A model generated the notes under the pieces. It saw only the letters and a list, made by a program, of their open reading frames with translations, made no database searches and had not been told where the DNA came from. The position numbers and the translations under genes were made by a program. Shown here in pieces: positions 144-19,392 of a DNA stretch of 64,000 nucleotides. How positions within the stretch are numbered: position 1 is the first letter of the stretch; every line of letters begins with the position of its first letter. Origin of the DNA: Acidobacteriota bacterium (GTDB taxonomy: Bacteria > Acidobacteriota > Thermoanaerobaculia > Multivoradales > J023); contig JAJCXQ010000686.1 in NCBI GenBank assembly GCA_029263355.1, positions 177 through 64,176 on the forward strand. Direction: 5' to 3'.

Positions 144-269
144 GCAGGTCTCCTCGTTGATGGAGCCGTCAATTCAGCAAGATTGAATTATACCCTTCTA
201 AACCTGTATATTCAATACATTCAGAAAGACAAGGCTGTCGTCGAGGAGAATCCGTTCGGAGGAGTAACC

Positions 270-3200
270 ATGATCCACACTTTATCGTCACGCCGCCCCT
301 CGATGTCCCTCAGGTGGGGATCAACTCTCCTGGCCACCGTTCTTCTGTCGGCAGCTCCGGGACACGCACAGCTACCGGGAAACTCCTGGAGCGGTGAGGG
401 GCCGACGCCGATCCACAACGGGCAGACCGAAGGCATCACCAACAACCCGGTGGCTGGCGCCATCAACACGGTTGCCGCACATCCGACCAACTCGGACATC
501 CTCTATGTCGGGTCGGTCAACGGCGGGATCTGGCGCACAACAAACGCCACCAGCGCGTCGCCAACTTGGACCCGCTTGACGTCCTCCGAAGCTTCACAGT
601 CCATTGGTACGATCGATTTTGATCCAACGGACGGCACCAACAACACGCTCCTCGCCGGCATCGGCCGCTTCAGCAGCTTCGCCTCGGTTGGCGGCAGCCG
701 CTCGGGGCTGCTGCGCACCACCGACGGCGTCAACTTCACCCTGATTAACGGCGGCATGGCGGGGCGCAACATCGTCGGTACGGCTGCACGCGGCACGACC
801 CTGGTTGCAGCAGTCAATATTGCGGACATTTTCAGCTGCGGCAACATCGGGGTCTGGCGATCCACCAACACTGGAGTGAGCTGGACGCAGGTCTTGGGCG
901 GCCTCGCCGACGCTCTCGCCAGCGACCCGAGCAGCACCACCACCCTCTACGCGAGCAAAGTTTTCGGTGCTGCCTGCGGCGCGGGCGTCAACGGCATCTT
1001 CAAGAGCACCGATACCGGCGCCACCTGGGCCAAGGTGAGCACAGCGGCGATGGACGCCCTGCTCAACAACAGCTCGGGCACCAACGTCGACATCGTGGTT
1101 GGCAACAGCAACAACGTCTTCGTCGCCATCGTAAATTCAGGGACCGGAGCCTACGGTGGAGTCTTCCGCTCCGGCAACGGAGGAACAACCTGGACACAGA
1201 TGGACGCTCCTGCGACCGCCGCTGGCACTCTTCACCCCGGTACTCAAGGCGGCACCCACACCTCGATCGCCGCCGACCCGACCAACTCCAACATCGTTTA
1301 TCTCGGCGGTGATCGCCAGGCCAGCCCGTTTCCCAACCCGGTCGGCGCGGTGAACTTCTCCGGCAACCTGGCACGCGGTGACGCGAGCTTAGCCCCGGGA
1401 TCCCAGTGGACGGCCCTAACCCACAGTGGCACCGCTTCGAACTCGTCGCCCCACGCCGACTCGCGCGACATGGTCTTCACGGCCGGCGGCGACCTCATCG
1501 AGACCGACGACGGCGGCATCTACCGCCGCACCTCGCCGACTTCCGCCACCGGCGACTGGTTCTCGCTCAACAACAACCTTCAGGTCACCGAACACCACGA
1601 CTCGGCCTACGACAGTCTCAACGACATCTTGATCGTCGGCAATCAGGATGTCGGGACCGCCGAGCAGACCGCCCCGCTCGGCCTGATCTGGAACCAGGTG
1701 ACCCAGGGTGACGGTGGCGACGTGATCTCCGGCCCCGGCGCCGTCGCTGGCCAAGAGGTGCGTTACTCGAGCTTTCAGAATCTGTCGTCGTTTCGCCGCC
1801 GGACGTTCAATTCCTCGAACACTCTCTTGTCGACAGTCTTTCCCGCTCTCGCCGGTGCCGCCTTCTCCCCGCAGTTCAGGACTCCTATCGCCATCAACGA
1901 GATCGCCCCCAACCGCCTGATCTTCGGCGGCGCCAACGGGGTTTTCGAGTCGCTGAACCGCGGCGATACGATCAGCCAGATCAGCAGTACAATCGTCACA
2001 GATATCTTCAACGGAGGCGGCGCCATCGCCGCGGGCGGAACCGGCAACGCCGACCTCGTCTACGTTGCTGGTGTGGCTGGCGGGACCAGCGCACTCTGGG
2101 CGCGGACGACCAGCGGCGGCGCCTTTTCGAACGTCCAAACCGCCGCCGGCGGCACAGCCATGGTCGGCGCCACCATCGATCCCGACGATGCGACCCATGG
2201 TTTCGGACTCGATTCGGCGAACGTCTACCGCACCACAAACACCGGCACAACCTTCTCCAACGTCACTGGCAACCTGCTCACGCTGAGCCCCGGCACCCTG
2301 CGCTCCATCGAATACATCAACAGCTCGTCGGGTGACGCTGTGGTCGTCGGCGCCGACCGGGGAACCTACATCGCGTCAGACAGCACCTCGTTCAGCACCT
2401 GGACAAAGTTTGGCGCGGGGATTCCGAACTCCCCCGTGTTCGAGCTCACCTACGACTCGGCAGCAGACGTTTTACTCGCGGGCACCATGGGGAGCGGCAG
2501 CTATCGGATGACGAGCCTGTCGGACACCTGCGCCGAGTCGATCGCCCTGGTCACGGGTCAGTGGAAACAGATCTCCTTAGCCTGTAATCCCGGCGGCTCC
2601 AATACTGTCGCCGATGTCTTCGGTGACGACCTCGGCGGGACCTACGACGTTGATTGGGTTGTCTTTCGGTACGACGCGTCGACCCAAACCCAGATCAAAC
2701 TGGCGACCACCGATACCCTAGCCGTCGGCGAAGGCTACTGGATCAGAACAAACCTCGGCTCACAAGTCGTCGACGTCTCGGGGACCGACAATGTGGTGAC
2801 CGACACGCCGCTCACGGGCGTCCTGGCCACCCCACCAGCGGGCTGCGCCAGCTCGGCGGGACGCTGTGGCATGGCCGGAAATCCACACGCCTACGACGTC
2901 TGCTGGGCGGACGTCCTGGTGGACGACGGCGGATTTATCAATGACTTGGCAACGGTCGATCCGGGCGGAATCTGCCAAACAACCGGCGGCGCAACGTGTG
3001 TCATGTCGCGGATCGGCCACAAGTGGACCGGCTCCGCCTACACCACTTTTGACGGCACCACCCCGGGCATGGAAGGTACCTTGGTGCCCTGGGACGCCTT
3101 CTGGATTTCGGCCAACAAGCCCGGCATCGAGCTACGCATACCGGAGACTCCAGGCGGCCCGGGCTTGCCCTGCGGACCACCCGCCAGGACTAGCGATCAA

Positions 3201-3686
3201 GGTGAAGGCTGGTTCATACGGCTGACCGCCGAGTCCGGGCAGCTGGTGGATTCCTTCAACGTTTTTGGTCAGCTTCCCGACAGCCATCGCGGGTACGATC
3301 CGCACGACCTTCAAGAGCTCGCTCCTTTTGGCACCCCGTACCTAACCGTGGTGTTCCCGCACGACAACTGGGGCGATCACGCAGGAGACTACGCATCGGA
3401 CTATCATTTGGCGCGCCCGGCGTCGCAGCCCGACGAGTGGCGATTCGACGTCCGCTCTTCGGAAACCAGTGCCGAGGTGACCTTGCGCTGGGACGGGCCA
3501 AGCTCGCGCCTCGACGGCTCGGTGCTGACCGATGTAGAGACAGGCGAACAAGTGGACGTTTCAGGCGATGGGAGCTACACCTTCGTGATGAACGGCAACA
3601 GTCGAAGTTTCCACTGGGTCTCACAGGCGGCAAGCCAGGGGCTCTTCGCGGACAGCTTCGAGTCGGGCGATACAAGCGCCTGGTAA
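270..3686 (+). CDS. Large secreted BNR/Asp-box repeat protein (~1138 aa) with C-terminal ~430-aa module shared with the 5854..8538 protein
   Basis: ATG at 270 with GGAGGAG RBS; signal peptide (RWGSTLLATVLLSAAPGHAQ); multiple S-x-D/N-x-G-x-T/S-W repeats (GGIWRTTN, STNTGVSWTQV, STDTGATWAKV, SGNGGTTWTQM, TTNTGTTFSNV); C-terminal region aligns with paralog (VDWVVFRYD.../GEGYWIRT; CVMSRIGHKWTGSAYTTFDG; FIRLTAESGQL...LTVVFPHDNW); ends ...FADSFESGDTSAW. Confidence 0.85.
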   Translation: MIHTLSSRRPSMSLRWGSTLLATVLLSAAPGHAQLPGNSWSGEGPTPIHNGQTEGITNNPVAGAINTVAAHPTNSDILYVGSVNGGIWRTTNATSASPTWTRLTSSEASQSIGTIDFDPTDGTNNTLLAGIGRFSSFASVGGSRSGLLRTTDGVNFTLINGGMAGRNIVGTAARGTTLVAAVNIADIFSCGNIGVWRSTNTGVSWTQVLGGLADALASDPSSTTTLYASKVFGAACGAGVNGIFKSTDTGATWAKVSTAAMDALLNNSSGTNVDIVVGNSNNVFVAIVNSGTGAYGGVFRSGNGGTTWTQMDAPATAAGTLHPGTQGGTHTSIAADPTNSNIVYLGGDRQASPFPNPVGAVNFSGNLARGDASLAPGSQWTALTHSGTASNSSPHADSRDMVFTAGGDLIETDDGGIYRRTSPTSATGDWFSLNNNLQVTEHHDSAYDSLNDILIVGNQDVGTAEQTAPLGLIWNQVTQGDGGDVISGPGAVAGQEVRYSSFQNLSSFRRRTFNSSNTLLSTVFPALAGAAFSPQFRTPIAINEIAPNRLIFGGANGVFESLNRGDTISQISSTIVTDIFNGGGAIAAGGTGNADLVYVAGVAGGTSALWARTTSGGAFSNVQTAAGGTAMVGATIDPDDATHGFGLDSANVYRTTNTGTTFSNVTGNLLTLSPGTLRSIEYINSSSGDAVVVGADRGTYIASDSTSFSTWTKFGAGIPNSPVFELTYDSAADVLLAGTMGSGSYRMTSLSDTCAESIALVTGQWKQISLACNPGGSNTVADVFGDDLGGTYDVDWVVFRYDASTQTQIKLATTDTLAVGEGYWIRTNLGSQVVDVSGTDNVVTDTPLTGVLATPPAGCASSAGRCGMAGNPHAYDVCWADVLVDDGGFINDLATVDPGGICQTTGGATCVMSRIGHKWTGSAYTTFDGTTPGMEGTLVPWDAFWISANKPGIELRIPETPGGPGLPCGPPARTSDQGEGWFIRLTAESGQLVDSFNVFGQLPDSHRGYDPHDLQELAPFGTPYLTVVFPHDNWGDHAGDYASDYHLARPASQPDEWRFDVRSSETSAEVTLRWDGPSSRLDGSVLTDVETGEQVDVSGDGSYTFVMNGNSRSFHWVSQAASQGLFADSFESGDTSAW

Positions 3687-3746
3687 CGGCGATACGAGCC
3701 CCTGATAGAATGGGGGCTCGACTGAGAACAGAAAACAAGGTGCGAC

Positions 3747-3914
3747 ATGGATATATTGAAATCTGATCCGGCGCTCGAGACGCCAGCAGCGGGGGAAGCG
3801 AGAGCTGCTGAGCGTCCCTCGCGCCCCTACCAGAAACCTGAACCCAAGCTTTATGGCCAAATCCGTCCCAGCTTGATCGGATCGCCGCCACCGCCGCCAG
3901 GCAAGGGTTTCTGA
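3747..3914 (+). CDS. Candidate 55-aa precursor-like peptide MDILKSDPALETPAAGEARAAERPSRPYQKPEPKLYGQIRPSLIGSPPPPPGKGF (small ORF, unannotated in ORF track)
   Basis: ATG with AAGGTG 4 nt upstream; AT-rich 5' codons in a GC-rich genome; stop 19 nt before the S24/S26-like peptidase gene on same strand; hydrophilic N-part with Y-x4-P-x-L-x-G reminiscent of RRE-binding leader motifs, Pro5 tail; adjacent to PqqD/HprK-like genes. Confidence 0.45.
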   Translation: MDILKSDPALETPAAGEARAAERPSRPYQKPEPKLYGQIRPSLIGSPPPPPGKGF

Positions 3915-3933
3915 TACGGCCCCTGCGGCCAGC

Positions 3934-4536
3934 ATGGGATTGAACATCGCCCCTAGGAACGTCGCGTTGGGGACAGCCGCCTCCGGAGAGATTGCGCAAC
4001 AGCTTCTAGCGCGGGCTTTGCGCGCCGAGAAGGCGGCTCGGCTCCAAGTTCGGGGCCGCTGCATGGAGCCCTTGATTCGCGACGGCGATTGGGTCGAGGT
4101 TCTGCCGCCCGGTGCAGCGCAACACGGCAGTATCGTCCTGGCCCGCAACAGCAGTGTCGTGTTGGCCGCAAGCGGCAGTGACGATCTGGTCTGTCACAGG
4201 GTCATTGCGCGGGACGGCGACAGCGTCTGGCTAGCCGGCGACCACTCGGTGGCGGTTGAAGAACACCTCCCAGAGAGTGTGCTCGGTAGGGTCATCAGCG
4301 TTGATCGAGGAGGCGTGGTGCAACACCTCGACGGACCGGCGGTCCGCGGTCTCGATCGACTCGAAGCCGGTTTGCACCGGCTCGCTTGGCAACATCGCGG
4401 CTCACTCGTGAGCCGCGTGCTGGAAAAGTTCCGGCGGGCGCTTCTGGAGTTGCGCGCTCAAGCCTGGGCAGCGGGCGCCAAACTAGCCAACAGAGCGGGC
4501 ACATCGTCCCGTTTCCGGCCGGCTTCCAGCCGGTAG
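3934..4536 (+). CDS. S24/S26-fold (LexA/signal-peptidase-like) peptidase homolog with Cys at the nucleophile position
   Basis: GRCMEPLIRDGDWVEV resembles SipW/Sec11-type box (SGSMEP..GD..V) with C for S; downstream LVCHRVIARDGDSVWLAGDHS resembles HRV and GDNN boxes; 3' end overlaps convergent HprK-like gene by 79 nt, so C-terminus/start uncertain. Confidence 0.6.
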   Translation: MGLNIAPRNVALGTAASGEIAQQLLARALRAEKAARLQVRGRCMEPLIRDGDWVEVLPPGAAQHGSIVLARNSSVVLAASGSDDLVCHRVIARDGDSVWLAGDHSVAVEEHLPESVLGRVISVDRGGVVQHLDGPAVRGLDRLEAGLHRLAWQHRGSLVSRVLEKFRRALLELRAQAWAAGAKLANRAGTSSRFRPASSR

Positions 4537-5336
4537 CCGGGAATCGACCGACCGAGCCTCACCAAGGCCCGGAATCGATCCCCGGCAGCGGCCCCAGAGC
4601 TCAGGAAACCGCTCTGCCCCACCAAAACGTCTACCAGATCCGGCAACATCAACGGCGAGACGACGCTGTCTTCATGGTCGACAATCTCAGGACAAACGAT
4701 CGCCTGGAGCTCGATGTTAGTGGTGGTCGGCCAGGGTACTGATCTGGTCGCCGCACCACGAGGAAAAGCCACCATGCGGGGGCCATCCTCGCCCGGAGCG
4801 AGCCACACCACATCGTCCGAGAGCACCTCGTGCCCGGCGCGGTGGACATTGCCAAAAATCGTCGACTTCCCGACGCCGCTCGGGCCGGGCAACAGGATCC
4901 CAAAACCATCAACCGCGACGCCAGCAGCGTGGATCCCGAACCAACCACGACTCGCGCCCAACTCGATGAGCATCGGCACGAGGGCCAGGCCGATGAAAAG
5001 ATCCAACTCACCATCGGAAGGGCTCTCGAGGCAGAGGCCACCCCGGCCCTCCGTCACATCACACCAGGCCAGTACCCTCGGCAGCTCGAAGAAGATTTGA
5101 TCCCCCGCTTGCCGAACAGTGAGCGGAGGCTCCTCGACGACCGTCCTCCCCCTCGGCAGCGGCGCCGCTGCTCGCGCTCCGACGCTCACCTCGACCGGTA
5201 AGCCGCTCGCCGCAACCGCACCATGGATGAAGTAGGCCAGGAACGCCTCGATACGCTGATGCAACGGCCTCGGCAGGGGGTCGAAACGAAAAACCAGACC
5301 GGATCCGATCGGGACCACCAGAGAGGCGCGGGTCAT
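4458..5336 (-). CDS. HPr kinase/phosphorylase C-terminal-domain-related P-loop protein (HprK-related kinase)
   Basis: GIHAAGVAVDGFGILLPGPSGVGKSTIFGNVHRAGHEVLSDDVVWL matches HprK C-domain (G.HA..V...G.G.L..G.SG.GKS....G..L.SDD.V); ATGA start/stop overlap with upstream PqqD-like gene. Confidence 0.8.
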   Translation of the reverse strand: MTRASLVVPIGSGLVFRFDPLPRPLHQRIEAFLAYFIHGAVAASGLPVEVSVGARAAAPLPRGRTVVEEPPLTVRQAGDQIFFELPRVLAWCDVTEGRGGLCLESPSDGELDLFIGLALVPMLIELGASRGWFGIHAAGVAVDGFGILLPGPSGVGKSTIFGNVHRAGHEVLSDDVVWLAPGEDGPRMVAFPRGAATRSVPWPTTTNIELQAIVCPEIVDHEDSVVSPLMLPDLVDVLVGQSGFLSSGAAAGDRFRALVRLGRSIPGYRLEAGRKRDDVPALLASLAPAAQA

Positions 5337-5644
5337 GGGGCGTCGACACGCTCGACCAAGCCAAGCTCATGGAGCCGGGTCACGAACTCGAGCAAATCGG
5401 AACTGGCGCGCGAAGCCTCGATGCCGAAGTGCCTGGCGACCGCTTCTCCGACAACCCGGAGCTCGGACTCACCGTCGAGACGGTCCCAGATGAAGCCCCC
5501 GGCCTCCCCCACACCGTAGTAGCTACCCGAGTCGAGATCCAGGATCAGATAGTCGCCGGGAGAGCTTTCGCCGGTTGACGCTTCGCCGCGGACAACTCGA
5601 TCCGTCAAGCTGAAGTTGGCTTCTTCGCCACCATGTGAGTGCAT
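5333..5644 (-). CDS. PqqD-family protein (RiPP recognition element-like peptide chaperone)
   Basis: 103 aa; DYLILDLDSGSYYGVGEAGGFIWDRLDG...SDLLEFVTRLHELGLVERV matches PqqD/RRE pattern (Y..LN.ta..iW.ll.g....e.......l.efl..L...GL); translationally coupled to HprK-like gene. Confidence 0.8.
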   Translation of the reverse strand: MHSHGGEEANFSLTDRVVRGEASTGESSPGDYLILDLDSGSYYGVGEAGGFIWDRLDGESELRVVGEAVARHFGIEASRASSDLLEFVTRLHELGLVERVDAP

Positions 5645-5853
5645 TGATTGGAAGGTTATCAGATCGTCTGCCTCGCACCGGCGTGCCTTGATTTCGACCA
5701 GAATTTTGCATATTCTCTAATCGAGGTAGATCTATCTGCCCAAATGTTACGGCCCACTTGGCGTGGATCCAAAATCTTCATCTAGCGGATGCGGGTCTTT
5801 ATCCAGAGTTCGAGTTCCGGGTCGATACTCATCTTATAGATGGAGGTTTTGTT

Positions 5854-8538
5854 TTGAGATTTCGCACGTTACTGATTGCAGCTTGCTTGCTGTTATCCTT
5901 TTTTGCAACGTCCGAGACCCATGCCGCGATTAGCGTCATCAACGTTTCGGTCCCGCAAGAGATTGCGCCGGGAGAATCCTTCAACGTCACCTACACCTTG
6001 AGCGGCACCAGCACGCTGGCGGTCGCCGAGTTGAGGTTCTACCTCGGCGCCTCTCCCACCAGCCGAGACTTTGGCCCTCTAAACGAGTCATTTCAACTCC
6101 CTTTGATCGGCACGTTCCCCTCGTTTGGTCCGCCAGCCGGCCCGCAGACACGGTTCATCCGGATGCCCACGTCCCTGCAGTCGTTTGGCTGTTTCCCTTC
6201 GGGCACTTGGTACTTCATCTTGCAGGTCGATAGCGGCTCACAAAATGCCGACAGCTTCCAGGTTGCACCGCTCTCGATCTCCAGCTTCACACCACAATCT
6301 GGCCCGCCCTGCACGCCAGTGACCGTCAACGGCAACAAGTTCGGTGACGTGAACGTGAACGTGAACGGCCTTTTCTTCAACGGCACTCCTGCCGTAGGAA
6401 CGTTTGTCAACGACACGACAATCACCACTAACGTGCCACCGGGCGCGACGACGGGACCCATTCAGCTCCCAAACTCATGCAGCCCCAACCCCGGCGTGTC
6501 CTCACCATCACCCTTCTTTGTGACGCCTTTCGCCAATCCGCCAGTCGTCAACAGTTTCACCCCTACCACGGCTTCGGTTGGCGCCTTTGTTCAGATCTTC
6601 GGTGAGAACTTTACAGACACCACCACTGCCGTGCTCTTCAATGGTACTCCGGCATCGCGCGTGTTCATCAATCCTCAGCTAATGGTCGCGTTTGTGCCCA
6701 ACGGTGCTACGGACGGTCCGATTACCGTGGGCTCAGTGTGCGAGGGATCCGATGTTTCGACATCCGACTTCATTGTCGACCCCCACTGTCTTTCCGCCGC
6801 CGAGTTTCTCAATGCCTCCCGCATTGACTCGGTAAGATTGGGCAATCTCGAGTATGTGAACAACGAGATGCCGAGTTGTACGTTCTACACCAACAACTCA
6901 GACCTCGTGACCCATGTCTTTCCCGGGCAGACCGGACTCCCGATCCAGATCGGACAAGGTTCTTGCGACGCCAACAACTTCAACAAGGTCACTAAGCTGT
7001 TCGTCGATTGGAATGGCGACACAGACTTCAGTGATCCTGGCGAGTTGGTGTTGACCGGACCTCCGTTTCCCAACGCGCTGCTGTCTGGCACCTTCAGTGT
7101 TCCGCCGTCGGCGGTCTTGGGCCCGGCCCGGATGCGGATTGTGACGCAGGCTGCCGCTTCGTCGGACGATGTCACCGACTGCGGCCTGTACAACTTCGGT
7201 GAAACTCAGGACTACACACTAGAAATCTCGGCGTGTGCCGGGTTCCGAGATTTGCCGGCAGGGAATTGGCACAGTATCTCCATACCTTGCGATCCCGGGC
7301 TCGAGAACACCGTGCAAGATCTCTTCGCCGACGATTTGAGCGGTGTTTATGGCATCGATTGGGCGCTTTTTACCTACGATGTGAACACCGGGCAGTCCTC
7401 GGTGATGGCTCTCGGCGATACCGTCGAGACGGGCCGGGGTTATTGGCTCAAAACTCGCGACGACGGCCAGAGTATCGGTCCTGGAGGAATCGTAAACCCG
7501 CAGGCGATCGGCATGGGTGGACAACCCAGCTCGATGACCGATATGTCCTTGGTCGCGGACCCGGCGGGCCGCTCCAATCTAGTTGGATTCCCCTACACCT
7601 TCAGTGTCGATTGGGCCGATGTGCAGGTGGTCGACGGTGGCAACGTCCTAACTCTCGATCAAGCCGATCCGGTGGTTGGGCTCGATCGCGCCTGCGATCT
7701 GGATCCACCCCACGCGAGCTGTGTCATGTCACGATTGCTCTACCGGTGGAACGGGGCGGCTTACGAGACATTCAACGGAGCGACCCCCGGCGCTGAAGGT
7801 GTGCTCAGCCCGCTGGATGGCTTGTGGGTCAAAGCGTTCAAGAGTGGTATTTCTCTGAGAATTCCCGCGGTTCCCTCGAGCCGGGATGCGGAGCGAGCGG
7901 GGGATGAAGTAGACCCGAACAGCTGGTTCATTCGGCTGATCGCAGAATCAGGAAATCTGCGGGACGCCGGCAACATCTTGGGCGAATCGGAGCAGAGCGT
8001 CGAAGGTTACGACCTCGACGACTTGGCCGAGCTGCCGCCGTTTGGGCAACCGAACCTGACCGTGGTTTTTCCACACCCGGATTGGGAGGAAAGGGCCGAC
8101 GACTATACGACGGACTTCCGCCCCTTGAATCTCGGTCTCGAGTCCGAGCCGACACTTTGGCACTTCGAGGTCCGATCCTCGGACCCCACCGCCGACGTGA
8201 CTCTGAGTTGGGAAGGATCCGGCACTCGGCTGCTCGGCTCGGAGCTGTTCGACGAGGAAACCGGCGAGCGGGTAACGATTCGCCCCGGCGCGAGCTACTC
8301 GTTCACCATGACCGGGCCGAGTCGTCACTTCGAGTGGTCGGTGCAGGGAGTGTCACCGTCGGCCGGTCAAATTTTCGCGGACGGATTCGAGTCGGGCAAT
8401 CTGGGCGCTTGGCAATCCCTGGGCTCGGGTCGATCCGCGAACACGCTGAAGGTCGAGTTCGAGAGTGACGTCCAACCACGACAACACGACTCAAAACTAG
8501 AACCGCGGAGCAGAGCGAGCGAGACGATCAGGCAGTAG
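5854..8538 (+). CDS. Large secreted protein with two IPT/TIG domains, a GEVED domain and the C-terminal module shared with 270..3686
   Basis: TTG start at 5854 with GGAGG 7 nt upstream (no in-frame ATG before signal peptide LRFRTLLIAACLLLSFFATSETHAA); IPT-like repeats (FTPQSGPPCTPVTVNGNKFG..., FTPTTASVGAFVQIFGENF...); GEVED-like motif CGLYNFGETQDYTLEI; C-terminal alignment with first protein; ends ...FADGFESGNLGAW + 48 aa. Confidence 0.8.
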   Translation: MRFRTLLIAACLLLSFFATSETHAAISVINVSVPQEIAPGESFNVTYTLSGTSTLAVAELRFYLGASPTSRDFGPLNESFQLPLIGTFPSFGPPAGPQTRFIRMPTSLQSFGCFPSGTWYFILQVDSGSQNADSFQVAPLSISSFTPQSGPPCTPVTVNGNKFGDVNVNVNGLFFNGTPAVGTFVNDTTITTNVPPGATTGPIQLPNSCSPNPGVSSPSPFFVTPFANPPVVNSFTPTTASVGAFVQIFGENFTDTTTAVLFNGTPASRVFINPQLMVAFVPNGATDGPITVGSVCEGSDVSTSDFIVDPHCLSAAEFLNASRIDSVRLGNLEYVNNEMPSCTFYTNNSDLVTHVFPGQTGLPIQIGQGSCDANNFNKVTKLFVDWNGDTDFSDPGELVLTGPPFPNALLSGTFSVPPSAVLGPARMRIVTQAAASSDDVTDCGLYNFGETQDYTLEISACAGFRDLPAGNWHSISIPCDPGLENTVQDLFADDLSGVYGIDWALFTYDVNTGQSSVMALGDTVETGRGYWLKTRDDGQSIGPGGIVNPQAIGMGGQPSSMTDMSLVADPAGRSNLVGFPYTFSVDWADVQVVDGGNVLTLDQADPVVGLDRACDLDPPHASCVMSRLLYRWNGAAYETFNGATPGAEGVLSPLDGLWVKAFKSGISLRIPAVPSSRDAERAGDEVDPNSWFIRLIAESGNLRDAGNILGESEQSVEGYDLDDLAELPPFGQPNLTVVFPHPDWEERADDYTTDFRPLNLGLESEPTLWHFEVRSSDPTADVTLSWEGSGTRLLGSELFDEETGERVTIRPGASYSFTMTGPSRHFEWSVQGVSPSAGQIFADGFESGNLGAWQSLGSGRSANTLKVEFESDVQPRQHDSKLEPRSRASETIRQ

Positions 8539-8554
8539 AGCGAACAGGCACGGT

Positions 8555-9685
8555 TTGCTCGCTGCACCGCGAGGCCCATACACTTCGCAGGTGGTCTTGC
8601 AAGTGTCCGTTGCCCCGCGGGGTCCATCAGCGGCCCGATACAGTTCTATTGAGCGACAACTGGTAGAACTGGTCGCGGCCATGACAGGTCGAGACGAGGC
8701 CTTCTCGCAGCAATGCGAGGAGGTCCGGAATTGGGAGCGTCTGCTCGAATCCGCGCTGGAGCACGGCGTCGCGGGTGTTCTGATGCAGCGCATCGCGGAC
8801 ACCGGCATTAGCCTACCGGCAAAACCTCGCGAGGCGATTGAGCAACGTCTCGCCGTCGACCGCCTGTGGCATCGCCACATGACGGGGGACCTCAGGCAGG
8901 TCCTGCAGGCGTTCGCGGAAGACGGGTTACATACCGTGACCTTGAAAGGACCGGTGCTGAGCGAACGTCTCTACCCACGGGCAGCGCTGCGTGCTTCGGG
9001 AGATCTCGACCTGTTGGTCCGCCCCGCGGACATGGCGCAAGCCCGGGAAACCTTGATCCGCATCGGCTATTCCCCCAGACCAGGAGCACCCCTTCTTCAC
9101 GCCAGCGTCTTCGACCACTCCGGTGGCGGCAATGTCGACCTGCACTATCGCGCCTCCGACGGCTTCGCCACAACCCTGGAGGCCGAAAACCTCGTCACCC
9201 GCTCGATCCCCTACGACACGGCGGACGCGGGAAGGGCGTGGATTCTGGCGCCGGAGGACGAATTCCTCTATCTCGCCGTTCACGCCGCGCGTCACCGATT
9301 TTTGCGACTACGCTGGCTCTACGATCTACATCTTTTTGCGCAGCATCATCCCGATCTCGCCTGGGAGACGATTGCCATCCGGGCCAAGGCGCACCACGTT
9401 CAACGGGCGGTTTCAACCACCTGCGAAGCGCTCGAAAGGCTGCTGCCGGAAACGCTTCCGGAGGCGGCAAAAGCCCACCTGCGACAAGAGCCCGTTCGGT
9501 CACGCATCGTGATGGCCGTGGCGTCGCTCTCTGCCGTGGCCGACGACAGCGTTTGGCGCAAAAGCTACCGAGTCTTCTGGCACGTCACCTATCACGCCCT
9601 CCTCGGCGAAAGCAGCGTCGCCAGCATCCGGTTCTGGTGGCAGTCCCTAGCGCAGGCTGCAGCGCGGCTCTGGCGCACGCGCTAG
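8555..9685 (+). CDS. Nucleotidyltransferase-family protein (PF14907-like 'uncharacterised nucleotidyltransferase')
   Basis: KGPVLSERLYPRAALRASGDLDLLVRPADMAQARETLIRIGYSP and DLHYR... fit the PF14907 pattern; start uncertain (TTG 8555 or ATG 8681). Confidence 0.65.
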   Translation: MLAAPRGPYTSQVVLQVSVAPRGPSAARYSSIERQLVELVAAMTGRDEAFSQQCEEVRNWERLLESALEHGVAGVLMQRIADTGISLPAKPREAIEQRLAVDRLWHRHMTGDLRQVLQAFAEDGLHTVTLKGPVLSERLYPRAALRASGDLDLLVRPADMAQARETLIRIGYSPRPGAPLLHASVFDHSGGGNVDLHYRASDGFATTLEAENLVTRSIPYDTADAGRAWILAPEDEFLYLAVHAARHRFLRLRWLYDLHLFAQHHPDLAWETIAIRAKAHHVQRAVSTTCEALERLLPETLPEAAKAHLRQEPVRSRIVMAVASLSAVADDSVWRKSYRVFWHVTYHALLGESSVASIRFWWQSLAQAAARLWRTR

Positions 9686-9703
9686 CCGACCTCAGGCGAT
9701 TCA

Positions 9704-10459
9704 TCACATCCATCCGCGCCAACGATAGACCACCATTCCAAGGTATTCTTTGATGGCGCGGGTGCTGCCTTCGAGCGCTTCGGCGTCAGGCAGCCATCCT
9801 ATCCCCTCCTCAACAATCTCAAAGTCGGTAGGGGCAGCAACCACATCGACCCCAGCGGCGCGAAAGGTGGCCAGAGCCCTTGGCATGTGCAGCGCAGAAG
9901 TCACCAGCAATACTGTCTGCGGCCCTCTCTGCTCGAGCAGCACTCGAGTGAAACGGGCGTTCTCGTAAGTGGTGCGGCTCTCAGCTTCGATCAAGATCGC
10001 GTTCCGTGGGACACCAAATTCGACCAAAAGATCTGCGATCAGACTCGCCTCAGAAGCCGCATCGGGCGGTCCTCCACCAGAGGCGACGATCAACGGCGCC
10101 TTGCCGGCGGCAAACAAATGTGCCGCGTGGCGGACGCGATCCGATGCCGCCGTCAGATTGCTGGTGAGCCGCGGTGGAATCGGCCCACCGACAAAGCCAC
10201 CGAGCACCACGATCACGTCTCTCTGCGGTAAGTCCTCCGCAGCGGAGGGCGGATAACGCTGCTCCAGGGAACCTCGCAGACCGACTGAAACCACGGGCAG
10301 CGAAGGCAGCCCGAGAGTCAGCAGAGCAAGCGCCAGGCAAACCGCCACCCACAGCCGGCGACGACGCCAAAGGGCCAGGGCGGCGAGGATCAACAGGCCG
10401 AGGCCTGCGGGCAGCGGATAAACCACTGCGGAGACGGCGCCGAAAAAGAAGTCAGTCAC
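9704..10459 (-). CDS. YdcF/DUF218 (SanA/ElyC-like) family membrane-anchored protein
   Basis: N-terminal TM; VIVVLGGFVGG...RVRHAAHLFAAGKAPLIVASGG...LLVTSALHMPRALATFRAAGVDVV characteristic of DUF218. Confidence 0.8.
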   Translation of the reverse strand: MTDFFFGAVSAVVYPLPAGLGLLILAALALWRRRRLWVAVCLALALLTLGLPSLPVVSVGLRGSLEQRYPPSAAEDLPQRDVIVVLGGFVGGPIPPRLTSNLTAASDRVRHAAHLFAAGKAPLIVASGGGPPDAASEASLIADLLVEFGVPRNAILIEAESRTTYENARFTRVLLEQRGPQTVLLVTSALHMPRALATFRAAGVDVVAAPTDFEIVEEGIGWLPDAEALEGSTRAIKEYLGMVVYRWRGWM

Positions 10460-10468
10460 TGCACGGTG

Positions 10469-11638
10469 CTACTGGAGAATCTCCGCCAAGATCTTCCATC
10501 GACCGTCCTCTTCCACCAGCTCGAGGATCTTGTTGGCGGCGACTTTGATGGTGTCGGATCGGTAGAGCTGCCGGAGCTGCACCCTTGCCGATCCAGCTTC
10601 CATGGCGAGAATCTCCGGATTCTCCACCGTCACCTCGATGAAGCTCGGACCTTGGATCCGGGCTCGTCGGTGACTCTCCCATTCACTGCGGCTCTGTCCT
10701 TCCGGCGGCTGGAATCCGGGAGCGTAGAAGGCGAGGTAGTCGTCCACTCGCTGATCCGACCAGGCCCCGGCCCAATCCCGAACCATGGCTAGGACTTTCG
10801 CCTTCCGTGACGCGGGCGCGTCCGGTTGGGGTAGCGATTCAGGTATCTCGGTCGTAGGTGTCTCGAGTTCAGGCGATCCACCCGTCTCAGGCGGCACCTC
10901 GTCTTCAGTCGACACCTCGATCTCAGGCGGCCCCTCGACCTCTGGCGACGCCTCAGTCTCTGGACAGCGTTCTGCTATCCGGAGCCGGCTCAACTCGGAC
11001 CGAGTGACAGCCAACTCGTCTAGCAGCTTCCGTTGCGCGATATCAGCCAACCCTAGCTGTCGCGTCAAACCGGCGATATCCGCCTGCGCCTTGTTCAGTT
11101 CGTCTTGTAGCGCTTGCTGCCTGGCAGCGAATTCCGCCGACTCCTCTTGATCCCTAGAAGCAACTTCCTCGGTCTCGGAACGAAGGGCCGACTCACTTTC
11201 AACGGTTAGCCCAGCCTCCTCCGAGCCGCTCGGGGGCCGGGGAAGATCAAACTCGACGAGATAGCTCGGACGCACCACAACCTCGCCGTTGATCTCCAGC
11301 AACGATTGAGAGTCTTCCACCTCGACCAGCGTCCCCTCGCCGACATCGATTCTCTTGGTCTCCGCGCCAACAGTGAGCTGATAATAAATCAGCCCGACAT
11401 CACCAACCTCAAGGCCCGCCATCCGACCCTTGTCGATGGTGGCAACACCTTGATGGACACTCGAGATCGTGACGATGAGCGTTAGGATTGTTTCGGTAAT
11501 CACCAATTTGACCCCTTCTAGAGCCATTATAGCGAGCAGCGTCGGATCGCCGATCCCGACTCCATCGAGCGCAGAGTGCTCGACTTTGAACGCTCCAGAA
11601 TCGCGTCGCGGAAGCTTGCAGAGGCCAGCTGGACCCAT
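10469..11638 (-). CDS. Hypothetical protein with coiled-coil centre, Pro/Glu-rich linker and C-terminal alpha+beta (NTF2/SnoaL-like?) domain; start uncertain
   Basis: Long ORF; QQALQDELNKAQADIAGLTRQLGLADIAQRKLLDELAVTRSELSRL coiled coil; C-term VLAMVRDWAGAWSDQRVDDYLAFYAPGF...WKI. Confidence 0.5.
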   Translation of the reverse strand: MGPAGLCKLPRRDSGAFKVEHSALDGVGIGDPTLLAIMALEGVKLVITETILTLIVTISSVHQGVATIDKGRMAGLEVGDVGLIYYQLTVGAETKRIDVGEGTLVEVEDSQSLLEINGEVVVRPSYLVEFDLPRPPSGSEEAGLTVESESALRSETEEVASRDQEESAEFAARQQALQDELNKAQADIAGLTRQLGLADIAQRKLLDELAVTRSELSRLRIAERCPETEASPEVEGPPEIEVSTEDEVPPETGGSPELETPTTEIPESLPQPDAPASRKAKVLAMVRDWAGAWSDQRVDDYLAFYAPGFQPPEGQSRSEWESHRRARIQGPSFIEVTVENPEILAMEAGSARVQLRQLYRSDTIKVAANKILELVEEDGRWKILAEILQ

Positions 11639-11686
11639 CAGAGCACAGCGCCTTTGCCTTGAATGAGGCTTTGCAGTCCGAAAAAT

Positions 11687-12100
11687 AACGTTCTAGTTTT
11701 TTCTAGCCGTTACTGACGTTTTACAACTAACGTTTCTGTTCATCTTGAACGTTATTGACATTTTACCAACAACCTTCAAGGCCAGGCGGAATAACTAATG
11801 ACGTTCTGCCAGTAACGCCACGGCCCAACTTGATCGTTATTGGCATTCTACTGAAAACGGTCAGGGCCAAGCCTGAACGCTATTGGCAAACGGCAATAAC
11901 AACTCAGTCGCTCTTGATCGTTATTGGCATTTTACCCAGTAACGTCACAGCGGATCTTGATCGTTATTGGCAAATTGCCAACAACAGCTCAAACGAACTT
12001 GATCGTTATTGGCATTTACCCAGTAACGATCCGGCTGGTCCTGAGCGTTATCGGCAAATTGCCAATAACGATCGAGACGTACTCAAACGTTATTAAAGCT
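11687..12100. repeat. AT-rich array of imperfect direct repeats built on a palindrome CGTTATTGGCAA-A-TTGCCAATAACG (12-bp arms), abutting the tRNA-Ser 3' end
   Basis: Copies of CTTGATCGTTATTGGCA at ~11829, 11914, 11958, 12000; near-perfect 25-bp palindrome at 12046..12070; variants CGTTATTGGCATTTTACCCAGTAACG; local GC ~45% vs ~65% flanks. Confidence 0.7.
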
Positions 12101-13747: not shown

Positions 13748-14710
13748 ATGTCCGAATCCCTCGCCTTGAGCATCGTCGTGCCGATCTTCAACGAGCGCGA
13801 CAACTTACAAGATCTCCACGCTGAGCTGATGGGTGTCTTGGTCGATGGTTATGATGGCTACGAAGTGATCTATGTCGACGACGGCAGTACCGACGGCTCG
13901 GCAGCTATCCTGGCCGAGCTTGTCGCAAGCGAACCTACTGCGATCGCGGTGTTCCTGCGTCGCAACTACGGCCAGACCGCCGCCTTCGCAGCGGGCTTCG
14001 CTCAGGCGCGCGGAGAAATCGTGGTGACGATGGACGGTGATCTACAAAATGATCCCAAGGACATCCCGAACCTGCTCGCCAGGTTGGACGAAGGGGCCGA
14101 CGTGGTGAGCGGTTGGCGAGTGGATCGACAGGACACTCTGATACGGAGGCTGCCATCAATGCTGGCCAACCGCCTGATCTCGGCGGTGACCGGGGTTCAC
14201 CTGCACGACTATGGTTGTTCGCTCAAGGCCTATCGTTTGGAGATCTTGAAGGACGTGCGTCTATATGGCGAGATGCACCGATTCTTGCCAGCGCTGTGCC
14301 ACTGGCAAGGTGCGACGATCGCCGAGGTCGAAACCCGCCATCGCCCCCGTACCCGGGGCATCTCGAAGTACGGCATTGGCCGCACGCTGCGGGTGATCAT
14401 GGATCTGCTGACCGTCAAGTTCCTGATGAGTTTCTCTACCCGGCCCTTACACGTTTTCGGCAGTGTAGGCTTGATCTCGCTGGCGCTCGGAATGGCGGTC
14501 AACCTTTACCTCACTTTTCAGAAACTGGTACTCGGTATGGCGATCGGCAATCGGCCGTTGTTGCTGCTCGGTGTATTGTTGCTGTTCACTGGGTTTCAAT
14601 TCATGAGTATGGGCCTGCTGGGCGAGATGCTGGCCCGCATCTACCATGAGTCTCAGCAGAAGCCCATTTACTCGATTCGACGGATACTCTCGGGGACACC
14701 CAAAGTATGA
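13748..14710 (+). CDS. GT2 polyprenyl-phosphate glycosyltransferase (GtrB/ArnC/Dpm1-like)
   Basis: LSIVVPIFNERDNL...YEVIYVDDGSTDGS...TMDGDLQNDP; two C-terminal TM helices typical of GtrB-like enzymes. Confidence 0.88.
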   Translation: MSESLALSIVVPIFNERDNLQDLHAELMGVLVDGYDGYEVIYVDDGSTDGSAAILAELVASEPTAIAVFLRRNYGQTAAFAAGFAQARGEIVVTMDGDLQNDPKDIPNLLARLDEGADVVSGWRVDRQDTLIRRLPSMLANRLISAVTGVHLHDYGCSLKAYRLEILKDVRLYGEMHRFLPALCHWQGATIAEVETRHRPRTRGISKYGIGRTLRVIMDLLTVKFLMSFSTRPLHVFGSVGLISLALGMAVNLYLTFQKLVLGMAIGNRPLLLLGVLLLFTGFQFMSMGLLGEMLARIYHESQQKPIYSIRRILSGTPKV

Positions 14711-15409: not shown

Positions 15410-17368
15410 TCACTCAACGTCGAAACGGATCGGCTCGATGCTCATCGGTAACGGGTAGAACATCGGATCACCTTCGAAGCGAACCACGACACGGACCTCG
15501 CCGATTCCGGGATCGTCTGCTCCCTCACCCGTGGCTGTGATCACATAACCCTCCCAGCCCGCGGTCAACGCGTCGCGACGGAAACTCTTCGCCACGTCGG
15601 TACGATGGACGCCGAGCACCAGCTCACCACAGATGGCGCCTCGACGATCGAGCACCAGAACCTCGGCAACCCTAGCGCCCGACCTGTAAGCCCAACCTCC
15701 AAGGCGAACAAAGTTCGCGCTGATCCGAGTCGAACGGTCGACGTAACCCGCCATGTCCTCTAGTAGCCGATCCGCCAGACGCTCAGGCTCGATCAGTTCA
15801 CCGAGACGCAGGGGCCAGGGGCGATCGAACGGCACGTGCCCCGTGCGCTCGAGGTAGGCGCGACGCATCCACACATGCTCAGGCCAGGGCGCGACTGTCG
15901 CCTCGATGATCTCGTTGTCTGGCACGCCGTGGACCACTGCAAGGGCAGCGACAGGCTGCCGTGCGCCCCGCGCCACAAAACGATCCACCACCGGACCTCC
16001 GCGAAGGTGCATCGCCGTCGCCAGCCCTGCCACCAACGCCAACAGCAGAACCGCACCTACGACCCGAACAGGCGGCTGGGAAGGCCGATAACGCCACGCC
16101 AGCAGCCCGATCGAGGTCAGCAGGCCGATCCAGAACAGTGCCGCCAGCGAGCCGTAACGAGACGACATCGCTTGCGCTTCGCCGAACCCGGAACGGCCGA
16201 CGGCAGTCATCAACGCGTTACCTAAACCGTAGGCCTGAATCATCAACCACGGCGCCATCTCGACACGTAAAGACTTAGAGCTGAACGATAGCAGGACACA
16301 GCCCGCGACCACCAAGCCACTGGCCGCGATCGCGATCAGCCCGATCGTCCGTGCGGTCACCAACTCGCCGGAGAAGATCGAGCCCAGATAAACCGCCGCG
16401 TAACGTAACAACGACGTGGGATGACGAGTCTGTAACTCAGGGTGGTAGGGCAGCGACTCGTAGGACAGAGCGAAGAGAGCGACCACCAAACCCATTCCGC
16501 CGCCGAGCAGTAACAGGCGACGCCAGCTCAAACGCAGAAACACCCCGCCAGCGATCAACACCGGCCACAGAATCAAGTGAGTGCTGTGGCTGAAGGCGGC
16601 GGCGATGCCGAACAACAGCACCGGCCATACCGCCCACATCGTGCCGATCTCGGCACGCCGAGTCAAAGCAACGATCGCAGCAACCGCCAGCACATTGGCA
16701 AAGAACCAAATACTGCCACTGAATCCCATCGCCACGTTATGCGCCGCAACTGGCGAAAAACAGAACAACGCCACACCCAAGCCGAAGGTGACCTTGCCCC
16801 AAGGGCTGGCACGAAGTGCCGATGGCAGAGCCGAGACCAAAAGCACCAGTTCCAAGGTCAACAGCAGCAGAGAGAAAAATGTCAGGCCAAGATTGTGGCC
16901 GTTGGTGAGCAGGATGTTGAGAGCGTAAACCAACAACGGCAGTGAAGCGCGGTGCTCGTTCGACTTCAGATTCAGCCAATGCACCGGATCAACCGACAGG
17001 CCACCGCCTTCAGCTTCGCCGCCAACTTCGATCATGTCGCCCAGGATGGCGTAATAATCGTTGTGCTGCATTCGGCCGAAGCTCGAAAATTCGCCTAGGT
17101 AAACGACGATCGGCGACACAATTATCAGCCAGGTCACCATGCTGACGAGCAGCTTCGATCGCCGAACTGCGGGCACAGATCCCGAATGAGATTCACCACG
17201 TGGCGAGTCGACACGTGGCGAGTCAGCTTGTGACGAAACGTCTTCAGAGGACATCATGAGCTCGATGCATCGGGTCTTGGCGTGGCGGATGGACGAATCG
17301 TCAGCGGGCAGGCGGGGGTGGGATGCCGATGCAGTGTAACCACCGCTTTCGAAAAGCGTCAATAGCAC
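15410..17368 (-). CDS. Polytopic membrane protein with C-terminal soluble domain (putative glycosyltransferase-like; paralog of 17382..19190); true start probably ~17260
   Basis: ~10 TM helices; strong similarity to adjacent paralog (PVAAHNVAMGFSGSIWFFANVLAVAAI... / HSTHLILWPVLIAGGVFLRL); 5' region contains the duplicated promoter-like motif. Confidence 0.6.
   Translation of the reverse strand: MLLTLFESGGYTASASHPRLPADDSSIRHAKTRCIELMMSSEDVSSQADSPRVDSPRGESHSGSVPAVRRSKLLVSMVTWLIIVSPIVVYLGEFSSFGRMQHNDYYAILGDMIEVGGEAEGGGLSVDPVHWLNLKSNEHRASLPLLVYALNILLTNGHNLGLTFFSLLLLTLELVLLVSALPSALRASPWGKVTFGLGVALFCFSPVAAHNVAMGFSGSIWFFANVLAVAAIVALTRRAEIGTMWAVWPVLLFGIAAAFSHSTHLILWPVLIAGGVFLRLSWRRLLLLGGGMGLVVALFALSYESLPYHPELQTRHPTSLLRYAAVYLGSIFSGELVTARTIGLIAIAASGLVVAGCVLLSFSSKSLRVEMAPWLMIQAYGLGNALMTAVGRSGFGEAQAMSSRYGSLAALFWIGLLTSIGLLAWRYRPSQPPVRVVGAVLLLALVAGLATAMHLRGGPVVDRFVARGARQPVAALAVVHGVPDNEIIEATVAPWPEHVWMRRAYLERTGHVPFDRPWPLRLGELIEPERLADRLLEDMAGYVDRSTRISANFVRLGGWAYRSGARVAEVLVLDRRGAICGELVLGVHRTDVAKSFRRDALTAGWEGYVITATGEGADDPGIGEVRVVVRFEGDPMFYPLPMSIEPIRFDVE
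17332..17363 (-). promoter_or_regulatory. Copy 2 of the 32-bp promoter-like motif (TTGACG-N18-TACACT) upstream of the membrane-protein gene
   Basis: CAGTGTAACCACCGCTTTCGAAAAGCGTCAAT (plus strand) vs copy 1 CAGTGTATCCACCGCTCGCGAAAAGCGTCAAT, 28/32 identical. Confidence 0.45.
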
Positions 17369-17381
17369 ACCGGATCCGTGG

Positions 17382-19190: not shown

Positions 19191-19236
19191 GTCTCGCTTT
19201 GATGAGGGCCAGGCTGAAATTATTGGGATAACGACT

Positions 19237-19253
19237 TATGCTTGAAAAGCATA
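19237..19253. promoter_or_regulatory. Perfect dyad TATGCTT-gaa-AAGCATA in divergent promoter region
   Basis: 7-bp inverted repeat with 3-bp spacer in AT-rich intergenic region between 17382..19190(-) and 19393..(+) operon. Confidence 0.35.
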
Positions 19254-19392
19254 TACGGTTCATGCCGTGTCTCCGTCACAGTTCCGACTTGGCGCTGTAG
19301 TCCGGGATACCGTCATCTGGGATACCGTCATCCGGGCTGCCACCAACCGACCCCAATCCTCCGGGACTAAAAACCTCGAGCTTGTTTCGACT

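Follow-up and report, generated by a model that had tools for sequence, protein, structure and literature searches.

A conserved small gene of an Acidobacteriota bacterium and its probable role as a precursor in a pathway resembling that of linear polyphosphorylated peptides

The stretch of DNA analysed here, 64,000 nucleotides from an Acidobacteriota bacterium (GenBank assembly GCA_029263355.1, contig JAJCXQ010000686.1, positions 177 to 64,176 of the forward strand; hereafter the window), contains a 55-codon open reading frame (ORF, 3747..3914, + strand) in the gap between the gene of a giant secreted protein and that of a peptidase. Genes for an HprK-like kinase and a PqqD-like recognition protein lie just beyond, on the opposite strand. 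Two questions follow: is this short ORF a gene at all, and if it is, could its product be the substrate of the enzymes encoded beside it? The ORF is a genuine gene: it codes for a protein and is under purifying selection. Its product is likely to be the precursor peptide of a pathway of the RiPP type (peptides made on the ribosome and then modified after translation), one that resembles the pathway of linear polyphosphorylated peptides (LPPs) in a divergent and previously undescribed form. The locus and roughly 50-60 relatives of the peptide would then carry LPP-type logic, without a cyclase, into unrelated, GC-rich, mostly uncultured bacteria.

A translated gene in ten syntenic loci

The original prediction, made from the letters of the sequence, described a 55-codon ORF with its coordinates and translation, the sequence AAGGTG four nucleotides before the ATG and a 19-nt gap between the stop and the peptidase gene; all of these were confirmed on the sequence. 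The ORF encodes a 55-aa peptide, MDILKSDPALETPAAGEARAAERPSRPYQKPEPKLYGQIRPSLIGSPPPPPGKGF, with its ATG at 3747 and a TGA stop at 3912-3914. The Shine-Dalgarno (SD)-like AAGGTG is located at 3737..3742 (+) and is separated from the ATG by CGAC, a spacing of 4 nt. The flanking genes are those of a 1167-aa secreted protein (183..3686, +) and an S24-like peptidase whose ATG is at 3934 (3934..4536, +).

The size of the ORF alone is not significant against chance. In 5000 dinucleotide shuffles of the 247-nt gap, an ATG-started ORF of at least 55 codons arises in 14%, and one of that length on the + strand behind an SD-like site in 1.8%. It is the conservation of the ORF, not its length, that sets it apart from chance. 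Homologues of the peptidase form a family of 24 proteins, and their contigs gave six syntenic loci (L001-L006). Matches to a profile of the peptide added three further long contigs (L010-L012), making ten syntenic loci with the window. By tblastn and ORF extraction, one small ORF homologous to the window peptide was found in each of L001-L006, and the peptide was found again in the same neighbourhood in L010-L012. Thus the conservation that the original prediction had proposed to look for, a small ORF kept upstream of the homologous genes, is present in 9/9 of the other syntenic loci, and every one of these ORFs starts with ATG. Most are preceded by a clear SD sequence (GGAGGAG, AGGAG or AAGGA); that of L003 is weak (AGAG). 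A regular expression of the peptide motif has exactly one match per syntenic locus, and no match elsewhere in the window or in the non-syntenic loci.

The pattern of substitution is that of a translated gene. Over 24 conserved codons in nine loci, differences at codon positions 1, 2 and 3 number 173, 186 and 443, respectively. Pairwise nonsynonymous divergence (dN) is 0.04-0.44, and synonymous divergence (dS) is ~0.24 between the closest loci and saturated (>1) in most pairs. The invariant Pro, Ser, Gly and Leu residues are encoded by differing synonymous codons across the loci. The third-position differences, a dN far below dS and the synonymous codon variation are together the mark of a gene translated in this frame.

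A search of 5.8 billion proteins with the single 55-aa sequence returned the peptide itself only, because it has no five-residue words in common with its relatives; searching became informative once the alignment of the syntenic loci had been built. A profile from a seven-peptide alignment (A1) matched 39 unnamed proteins, most of them small (range 37-114 aa). When 1.84 billion representatives were searched exhaustively with HMMER, ~50 proteins came up at E <= 1e-3 (best 5e-14), almost all of 37-91 aa. From these matches the family appears to number about 50-60 mostly small proteins, coming from marine (TARA) and other metagenomes, and to be a new, sharply defined precursor family with a minimal proline-rich core. 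The gene is missing from the gene set of the long NCBI contig; annotation routinely misses precursor genes of this size.

Other searches yielded no further relatives. The peptide profile gave chance proline-rich matches only in the PDB, and two narrow peptide patterns run against genome and metagenome contigs gave false positives only. Candidates from four other contigs were rejected: L007, where a peptidase homologue lies beside a DNA polymerase III alpha-like gene, with neither peptide nor synteny; L013, which has no motif; and ORFs of L008 (2377..2550) and L009 (7719..8069), which have the string SCRPYRKPVPE in common and are otherwise unrelated, low-quality ORFs. That string ends the ORFs in two unrelated metagenome-assembled genomes (Leptospirillum and Candidatus Binatia).

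The peptide motif and the enzymes encoded beside it

The family motif was examined in 63 sequences, 61 of which match Y-x2-P-x5-G-x-[I/L/V]-x-P-x-L-...-[S/T]-P-P. In these 61, the Tyr and Pro of Y-x-x-P are invariant, and the first residue is never Trp. The hydroxyl residue of the motif is Ser in 59 and Thr in 2, and it follows the Tyr by 18 residues in 46 sequences, by 19 in 12 and by 20 in 3. At the N-terminus, a stretch of 5-87 residues is hydrophilic and varies between members. The protein ends exactly at S-P-P-x-P-P in 27/61 relatives; many members have 6-29 extra residues beyond the prolines. The family-conserved residues of the window peptide are Y28, P31, G37, I39, P41, L43, G45, S46, P47, P48, P50 and P51.

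This conservation changes which parts of the peptide matter. The original prediction had singled out a leader-like Y-x4-P-x-L-x-G arrangement, a tail of five prolines followed by Gly-Lys-Gly-Phe, and Ser, Tyr and Lys residues as possible acceptors of a transferred group. Both the literal Y-x4-P-x-L-x-G (Y28, P33, L35, G37) and the SPPPPPGKGF tail are found in the window peptide. The conserved register, however, is Y28-x-x-P31, with P33 and L35 variable across the family, and GKGF is specific to the window genome. Among the proposed acceptors, Ser46 holds as the invariant hydroxyl position, whereas the Tyr would serve as a binding determinant and the lysines are unconserved save K30, the sole conserved Lys.

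From alignments A1, A2 and A5, residues 1-43 (3747..3875, +) are predicted to form a leader, in which a variable acidic N-region is followed by R-P-Y-x-K-P...G-x-I-x-P-S-L. Within it, Y28-Q-K-P31 (3828..3839, +), the invariant Y-x-x-P, is the predicted binding site of the PqqD-type RiPP recognition element (RRE). The predicted core would begin at I44 (3876..3911, +) and reads IGSPPPPPGKGF in the window and L-G-S-P-P-x-P-P in most relatives. Its third residue, Ser46 (codon 3882..3884, +), is the predicted phospho-acceptor; Ser or Thr stands at Tyr+18 in 46/61.

The placing of the boundary comes from the LPPs, which are known from the LppA/K/B/S/D/N system of Paenibacillus alginolyticus and from other Bacillota (Popov et al., Nat Commun, May 2026; PMC13381572). 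LPP clusters encode a precursor, an HprK-like kinase, a discrete RRE, the signal-peptidase-like LppS, an NTP_transf_5 protein and MsbA, and no cyclase (PMC13381572). The kinase LppK adds several phosphates to Ser3 of the core, and LppS (catalytic residues S29, H68, D93) cuts the leader after T-1, only with LppB presenting it (PMC13381572). Y-16 and P-13 of the LppA leader are needed for binding, D70 of LppB hydrogen-bonds the Tyr, and RREs of both the lasso and the LPP systems bind to [Y/W]xxP (PMC13381572). LppA reads MEENTKREQKLYARPMVLSQQPVRFET up to the cleavage site and AQSWNKG... after it (PMC13381572 Supplementary Data 1). Counted from the Tyr, the registers of LppA and the window peptide are identical: the Pro at Tyr+3 of LppA corresponds to P31, a hydrophobic residue at Tyr+11 to I39, T-1 (the last leader residue, Tyr+15) to L43, and the polyphosphorylated Ser3 (Tyr+18) to S46. 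On the strength of this identical spacing, with LppA cleaved at Tyr+15, the leader would end after L43 and Ser46 would be Ser3 of the core. The residues round the predicted cleavage site (P41, L43, L/I44 and G45) are nearly invariant in the family.

Peptide, peptidase, HprK-like kinase and PqqD protein occur together in 9/10 loci, as determined by tblastn with the window proteins. The peptidase accompanies the peptide in 10/10 loci and an NTP_transf_5 protein in 6/10. In L002 the peptide gene is directly upstream of a PqqD-HprK operon, on the same strand, and the peptidase is ~5 kb away; what the peptide is linked to is therefore the pair of recognition protein and kinase, and not just the 5' region of the peptidase gene. 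Adjacency of peptide and peptidase is confirmed independently in another genome by P0089 (151 aa), in which the peptide motif (…YRGEIRPQLLGSPPPPP…) is fused to the C-terminal half of the peptidase (…LGRAVSAERNGRVL…), probably through a frameshift or an assembly fusion. The run from the giant protein gene through the peptide to the peptidase showed no promoter or terminator signals in its intergenic gaps, which are 12-60 nt long. The three are probably carried on one transcript; the short gaps and the lack of a detected terminator are weak evidence for this.

The recognition protein (5333..5644, -) belongs to the PqqD family (PF05402, 54 bits). Its best NCBIfam match is lasso_PqqD_Bac (41.5 bits vs a cut-off of 80), and the solved structure closest to it is leader-bound PbaB1, a paeninodin-like lasso RRE (9x90_B, E 5e-9). 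In a gap-free alignment, Asp82, four residues before Phe86, occupies the position of D70 of LppB, where the Trp-binding PbaB1 has Gln. An equivalent of Asp82 is present in 9/9 RREs of the family loci, in keeping with leaders that all carry Tyr. The original prediction had named the peptide as the substrate candidate of the PqqD/HprK pair, and that proposal is supported by the purifying selection on the ORF, the co-occurrence in nine of the ten loci, the adjacency in L002, the invariant Y-x-x-P, Asp82 and the precedent of the LPPs.

The HprK-like (ScmC-like) P-loop kinase (4458..5336, -), which is predicted to act on Ser46, is assigned from weak matches to Hpr_kinase_C, TIGR04355 and TIGR04352 and from an intact Walker A motif, LLPGPSGVGKST. 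The latter is conserved in 9/9 loci as LLPGPSG(V/A)GKST, and the LSDD motif is kept in 9/9 as well. PF27840 (ScmC) is recorded on a protein identical to the window kinase. For the kinase and PqqD pair, scores against the related curated families are well below the cut-offs: 29.7 and 35.5 bits vs 200 for HprK-related kinase A/B (TIGR04352/TIGR04355), 18.6 vs 125 for ScmC (TIGR04249) and 22.7 vs 100 for ScmD (TIGR04248). The nucleotidyltransferase (8555..9685, +) is an NTP_transf_5 protein (PF14907, E 1.5e-46), of the Pfam family of LppN and PsmN, and is the predicted secondary tailoring enzyme.

The S24/S26-fold peptidase, the predicted LppS-like leader peptidase, matches Pfam Peptidase_S24 at 29.5 bits, above the cut-off; its activity as a peptidase is assumed. 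BLASTP aligns it with LppS at E 2e-8, with 25% identity in a stretch of 115 residues that includes the catalytic core. In alignment A6, made with LppS and the other signal peptidase I (SpI) homologues of PMC13381572, S29, H68 and D93 of LppS correspond to C43, H88 and E109 or E110, and G-x-[S/C]-M-x-P, H-R and G-D are invariant. V-C-H-R is invariant among the relatives of the window peptidase, for which the candidate catalytic residues are C43, H88 and D103/E109-110; its H-R and G-D pairs are H88-R89 and G102-D103. Among the family members covering the nucleophile position, it is Cys in 11/14 and Ser in 3/14 (P0003-P0005), and the Thiolapillus homologue in the table of PMC13381572 also has Cys. 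An exchange of Cys and Ser is expected only at a true nucleophile. A structural model (AlphaFold2, pLDDT 85) has a clan-SF beta-barrel after a helix at residues 9-30, and its Foldseek matches are LexA, lambda cI, UmuD', human SEC11A/C and SpsB. In LexA, the signal peptidases and LppS the nucleophile is Ser; it would be unusual for a peptidase of clan SF to use Cys in this role, and the Cys/Ser alternation in this family amounts to a natural experiment on clan-SF catalysis. The N-terminal helix of LppS is assigned a contact with the RRE-leader sheet (PMC13381572), and the window peptidase likewise has an N-terminal helix before the nucleophile.

The peptidase and kinase genes are convergent and overlap by 79 nt in the window (4458..4536) and by ~95-170 nt in other loci (L001, L003, L005). 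Read in antisense, the conserved kinase motif "YRLEAGR" gives the conserved peptidase tail "...RPASSR", and owing to this overlap the conservation of the tail may be a shadow of the kinase gene.

The pathway can be pictured by analogy with the LPPs, from which each chemical step, the cleavage site and the product are predicted. The PqqD protein would bind the leader at Y28-x-x-P31 and at the strand after it, the hydroxyl of the Tyr being bonded by Asp82. It would present the peptide to the HprK-like kinase, which would phosphorylate Ser46, possibly several times, and the NTP_transf_5 protein may decorate or extend the phosphate. The peptidase, probably using Cys43 and His88, would remove the leader near L43 and I44 with the help of the recognition protein. 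The product would be a short proline-rich phosphopeptide (I/L-G-pS-P-P-x-P-P...). Because the very short invariant core (L-G-S-P-P-x-P-P) fixes the site of the chemistry, the family could serve as a simpler model for the products of the kinase and NTP_transf_5 enzymes.

Likeness to known systems and rival explanations

The likeness to LPPs covers most parts of the cluster: i) a discrete PqqD-type RRE is encoded beside the small precursor in 9/10 loci, with Asp at the Tyr-binding position; ii) an HprK-like kinase is present; iii) a soluble S24/S26-fold predicted leader peptidase aligns to LppS with the catalytic positions in register; iv) NTP_transf_5 is present and a macrolactam cyclase was not found in the window; and v) surface or polysaccharide genes are nearby in both. 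Both LPP and paeninodin clusters lie within capsule loci, and NTP_transf_5 was counted in 140 LPP neighbourhood genes (PMC13381572). The differences begin with the precursor. The LPP motif is YxxPxVLxHQxIxFETxxS; here V-L, H-Q and F-E-T are replaced (G at +9, P at +13, L at +15), and the rest of the precursor reads G-x-I-x-P-S-L-L-G-S-P-P-x-P-P instead of V-L-x-H-Q-x-I-x-F-E-T-x-x-S. Giant secreted proteins are linked to the cluster here. The hosts are GC-rich uncultured bacteria, whereas LPPs and paeninodins are stated to be restricted to Bacillota (PMC13381572).

Several observations weigh against assigning the peptide to an LPP-like pathway. The proline-rich core is 8-12 residues long, against ~45 residues rich in Gly, Asn and Lys in LppA. 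The RRE matches LppB (9x8z_B) at E 0.18 only and is nearer to the lasso RRE, so the system may have been assembled independently and not be an LPP orthologue. The peptidase has Cys43 in place of the catalytic Ser29 of LppS, as do most members of its clade, and scores 12 bits against TIGR02228 vs a cut-off of 51.85; this is the commonest NCBIfam match of the clade (14/21 members), always far below the cut-off. No ABC transporter or MsbA-like exporter was found in the ORFs scanned across the 64-kb window or among the called genes of the related loci, which leaves the release of the peptide unexplained. The GC content of the ORF by codon position is 0.64/0.59/0.57, and the third-position (GC3) excess of its neighbours is not seen. 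The proposed cleavage site and acceptor Ser follow solely from sequence and from the spacing analogy. Even for the LPPs, neither the end product nor what the NTP transferase does is known so far (PMC13381572). With no exporter, a motif agreeing in register only, a Cys peptidase below the cut-off and an RRE nearer to the lasso type, strict membership in the LPP class is not established.

Phosphorylated lasso peptides are the other close comparison. Their tailoring genes are HprK-like kinases, PF14907 nucleotidyltransferases and sulfotransferases; in paeninodin the C-terminal Ser of the precursor is phosphorylated by the kinase, and in pseudomycoidin a nucleotidyltransferase puts hexoses on the phosphate (PMC8498205). 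BsfK of Bradymonas phosphorylates Ser3 of BsfA, assisted by the B1 RRE, and the BsfA leader has YxxPxL at -17..-12 and Ile at -2 (PMC10368454). As proposed for the present system, an RRE (B1) binds a YxxP/WxxP leader in the paeninodin, pseudomycoidin and Bsf systems and aids an HprK-like kinase acting on a Ser of the linear precursor, and NTP_transf_5 and sulfotransferase genes accompany the clusters. The Ile at -2 of BsfA is a precedent for a non-Thr hydrophobic residue near the leader end, and the Tyr-to-Ser distance of 19 in a minority of the family is that of BsfA.

These likenesses might suggest a lasso precursor, with the genes of its cyclase and B2 protease located elsewhere. Such a precursor would account for an RRE scoring best against lasso PqqD models and PbaB1, for the Y-x-x-P leader motif about 17 residues ahead of the core, for Gly45 at Tyr+17, where the lasso numbering places core position 1, and for a kinase, an NTP_transf_5 protein and sulfotransferases of the known lasso tailoring types (PMC8498205). 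However, a scan of ORFs over the 64-kb window found neither an Asn_synthase-type lasso cyclase nor a transglutaminase-like B2 cysteine protease, and the gene tables of the other loci have neither beside the peptide. The only Asn_synthase protein is in L010, is of the AsnB type with GATase domains, and lies within a glycosyltransferase operon. The core, 7-8 residues in most members (7-12 overall), is too short against the about 15-25 of lasso peptides; it has no conserved Asp/Glu at positions 7-9 to form a ring, and the leader peptidase is of another fold. A lasso precursor is thus rejected as highly improbable. More distant is PqqA/PqqD, where a protein of the PqqD fold also holds a short precursor by a [W/Y]xxP motif in the leader; here there is no radical SAM PqqE, no other pqq gene and no Glu/Tyr cross-link pair, and the predicted chemistry is another. 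HprK-related kinase A/B and SynChlorMet (ScmC/ScmD) systems also pair an HprK-like P-loop kinase with a PqqD-like protein, but the scores are far below the cut-offs and radical SAM/SPASM maturases are lacking here. We know of no described precursor of this type in those systems.

Other explanations do without a released product or without a functional peptide. The ORF could act as a regulatory upstream ORF whose S-P-P-x-P-P-stop end stalls ribosomes (polyproline, dependent on elongation factor P) and tunes the next gene, the peptide itself having no function. A polyproline run near the end of the peptide, whose gene in the window stops 19 nt short of the peptidase start, would suit this, as would the L003 stop codon overlapping the next ATG and the 27/61 relatives that stop right after PP. 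Stalling would not need the RRE-binding motif and the LppA spacing upstream of the prolines, though; the downstream gene varies (PqqD in L002, a BamB-like gene after a gap of ~280 nt in L004), and many members run on for 6-29 residues past the prolines, all of which makes regulation by stalling quite improbable. Still less can be said for a chance ORF in GC-rich intergenic DNA, to which we give next to no credence. The shuffles that give ORFs of equal length, the absence of GC3 bias, the missing annotation and the self match of the single-sequence search would all fit it, but it is refuted by conservation in ten loci, the third-position pattern, the SD sites and profile E-values down to 5e-14. 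A riboswitch or small RNA in the gap was also rejected; there is no Rfam match in 3500..4100.

An explanation closer to the preferred one is that the peptide is a small modified protein rather than a released RiPP, bound by PqqD and phosphorylated on Ser46, and acting uncleaved or as a carrier. It might, for example, be a phospho-Ser primer for a glycan built by NTP_transf_5 and nearby glycosyltransferases, or the giant secreted proteins encoded with it might use it as a proline-rich ligand or adaptor. This would suit the failure to find an exporter in the window, the linkage of giant secreted proteins in 9/10 loci and the polysaccharide genes adjacent in L010, L011 and L006. It is also in line with the location of LPP and paeninodin clusters, whose final products are unknown, within capsule loci (PMC13381572) and with the hexoses that the homologous pseudomycoidin nucleotidyltransferase adds to phosphate (PMC8498205). 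Yet all ten loci have a conserved peptidase that is a homologue of LppS, a proven leader peptidase; residues P41, L43, L/I44 and G45, round the site where cleavage is predicted, hardly vary; and the L010 locus lacks the giant protein. An uncleaved carrier is on this evidence unlikely, and a cleaved, LPP-like precursor remains the probable identity of the peptide.

Giant secreted proteins and the surface context

Giant secreted protein 1 (183..3686, +; BNR/sortilin-like) is encoded directly upstream of the peptide. A second one (5758..8538, +), with TIG, GEVED and choice-of-anchor-Z repeat domains, has the same C-terminal domain as protein 1. The N-terminal parts of the two differ; the common C-terminal domain of ~390 aa (about 2529..3683 and 7159..8412) has no Pfam match and ends F-A-D-x-F-E-S-G-D/N-x-x-x-W. 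This domain is encoded directly before the peptide gene in 8/10 loci and elsewhere in L002, so that 9/10 loci carry it; L010 is the locus from which the giant protein is absent. Polysaccharide genes adjoin the cluster in L006, L010 and L011. Judged from these sequences, the giant proteins, together with the polysaccharide genes of some loci, point to a role at the cell surface, and the linkage of the giant proteins is a lead to the biological function.

Carried further, the peptide might be, instead of a RiPP of the antibiotic type, a new kind of building block of the cell surface: a proline-rich unit of seven to eight residues with a (poly)phosphorylated Ser, matured by a Cys clan-SF peptidase and serving as a glycan primer or anchor, or as a partner of the giant BNR/sortilin-like proteins. 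This extension is speculative and rather unlikely as a whole. If true, the LPP logic would have been invented independently outside Bacillota and in connection with the biology of the envelope.

The remaining genes of the neighbourhood are varied. In the window, the NTP_transf_5 gene is followed by genes of a DUF218/ElyC-like protein (9704..10459, -) and a Cds6_C protein (10469..11638, -). Sulfotransferase genes (Sulfotransfer_1/3) flank the cluster in L001 (2293..3204), L011 (5745..6626) and L012 (3915..5072). In L004 a SIR2-like gene with an AAA domain (AbiEii/AAA_21; 8624..11718, -) stands in the place of the kinase and PqqD genes and looks like a defence-system insertion or replacement. 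A Ser/Thr protein kinase gene lies next to a UDP-GlcNAc 2-epimerase-like gene near the cluster in L006 (8938..11103) and L011 (16784..19030), and a protein combining Pkinase and TPR domains is found at the far end of the window (60080..62854, -).

About 10 kb from the peptide cluster, a block of genes may be a surface-glycan locus. Its four large ORFs of 602-733 aa (15410..23381), which have no Pfam matches, are interleaved with GT2 glycosyltransferases and a methyltransferase; glycosyltransferase genes are at 13748..14710, 23273..24337 and 25020..26288. One of the large proteins has a weak match to the Leptospira LA_3751/3752 putative glycosyltransferase family. Farther downstream, the window encodes a 2-oxoglutarate dehydrogenase E1 of 1099 aa (48258..51560, -), in which a cyclic-nucleotide-binding domain (PF00027, residues 147-227) is placed between the N-terminal segment and the E1 core.

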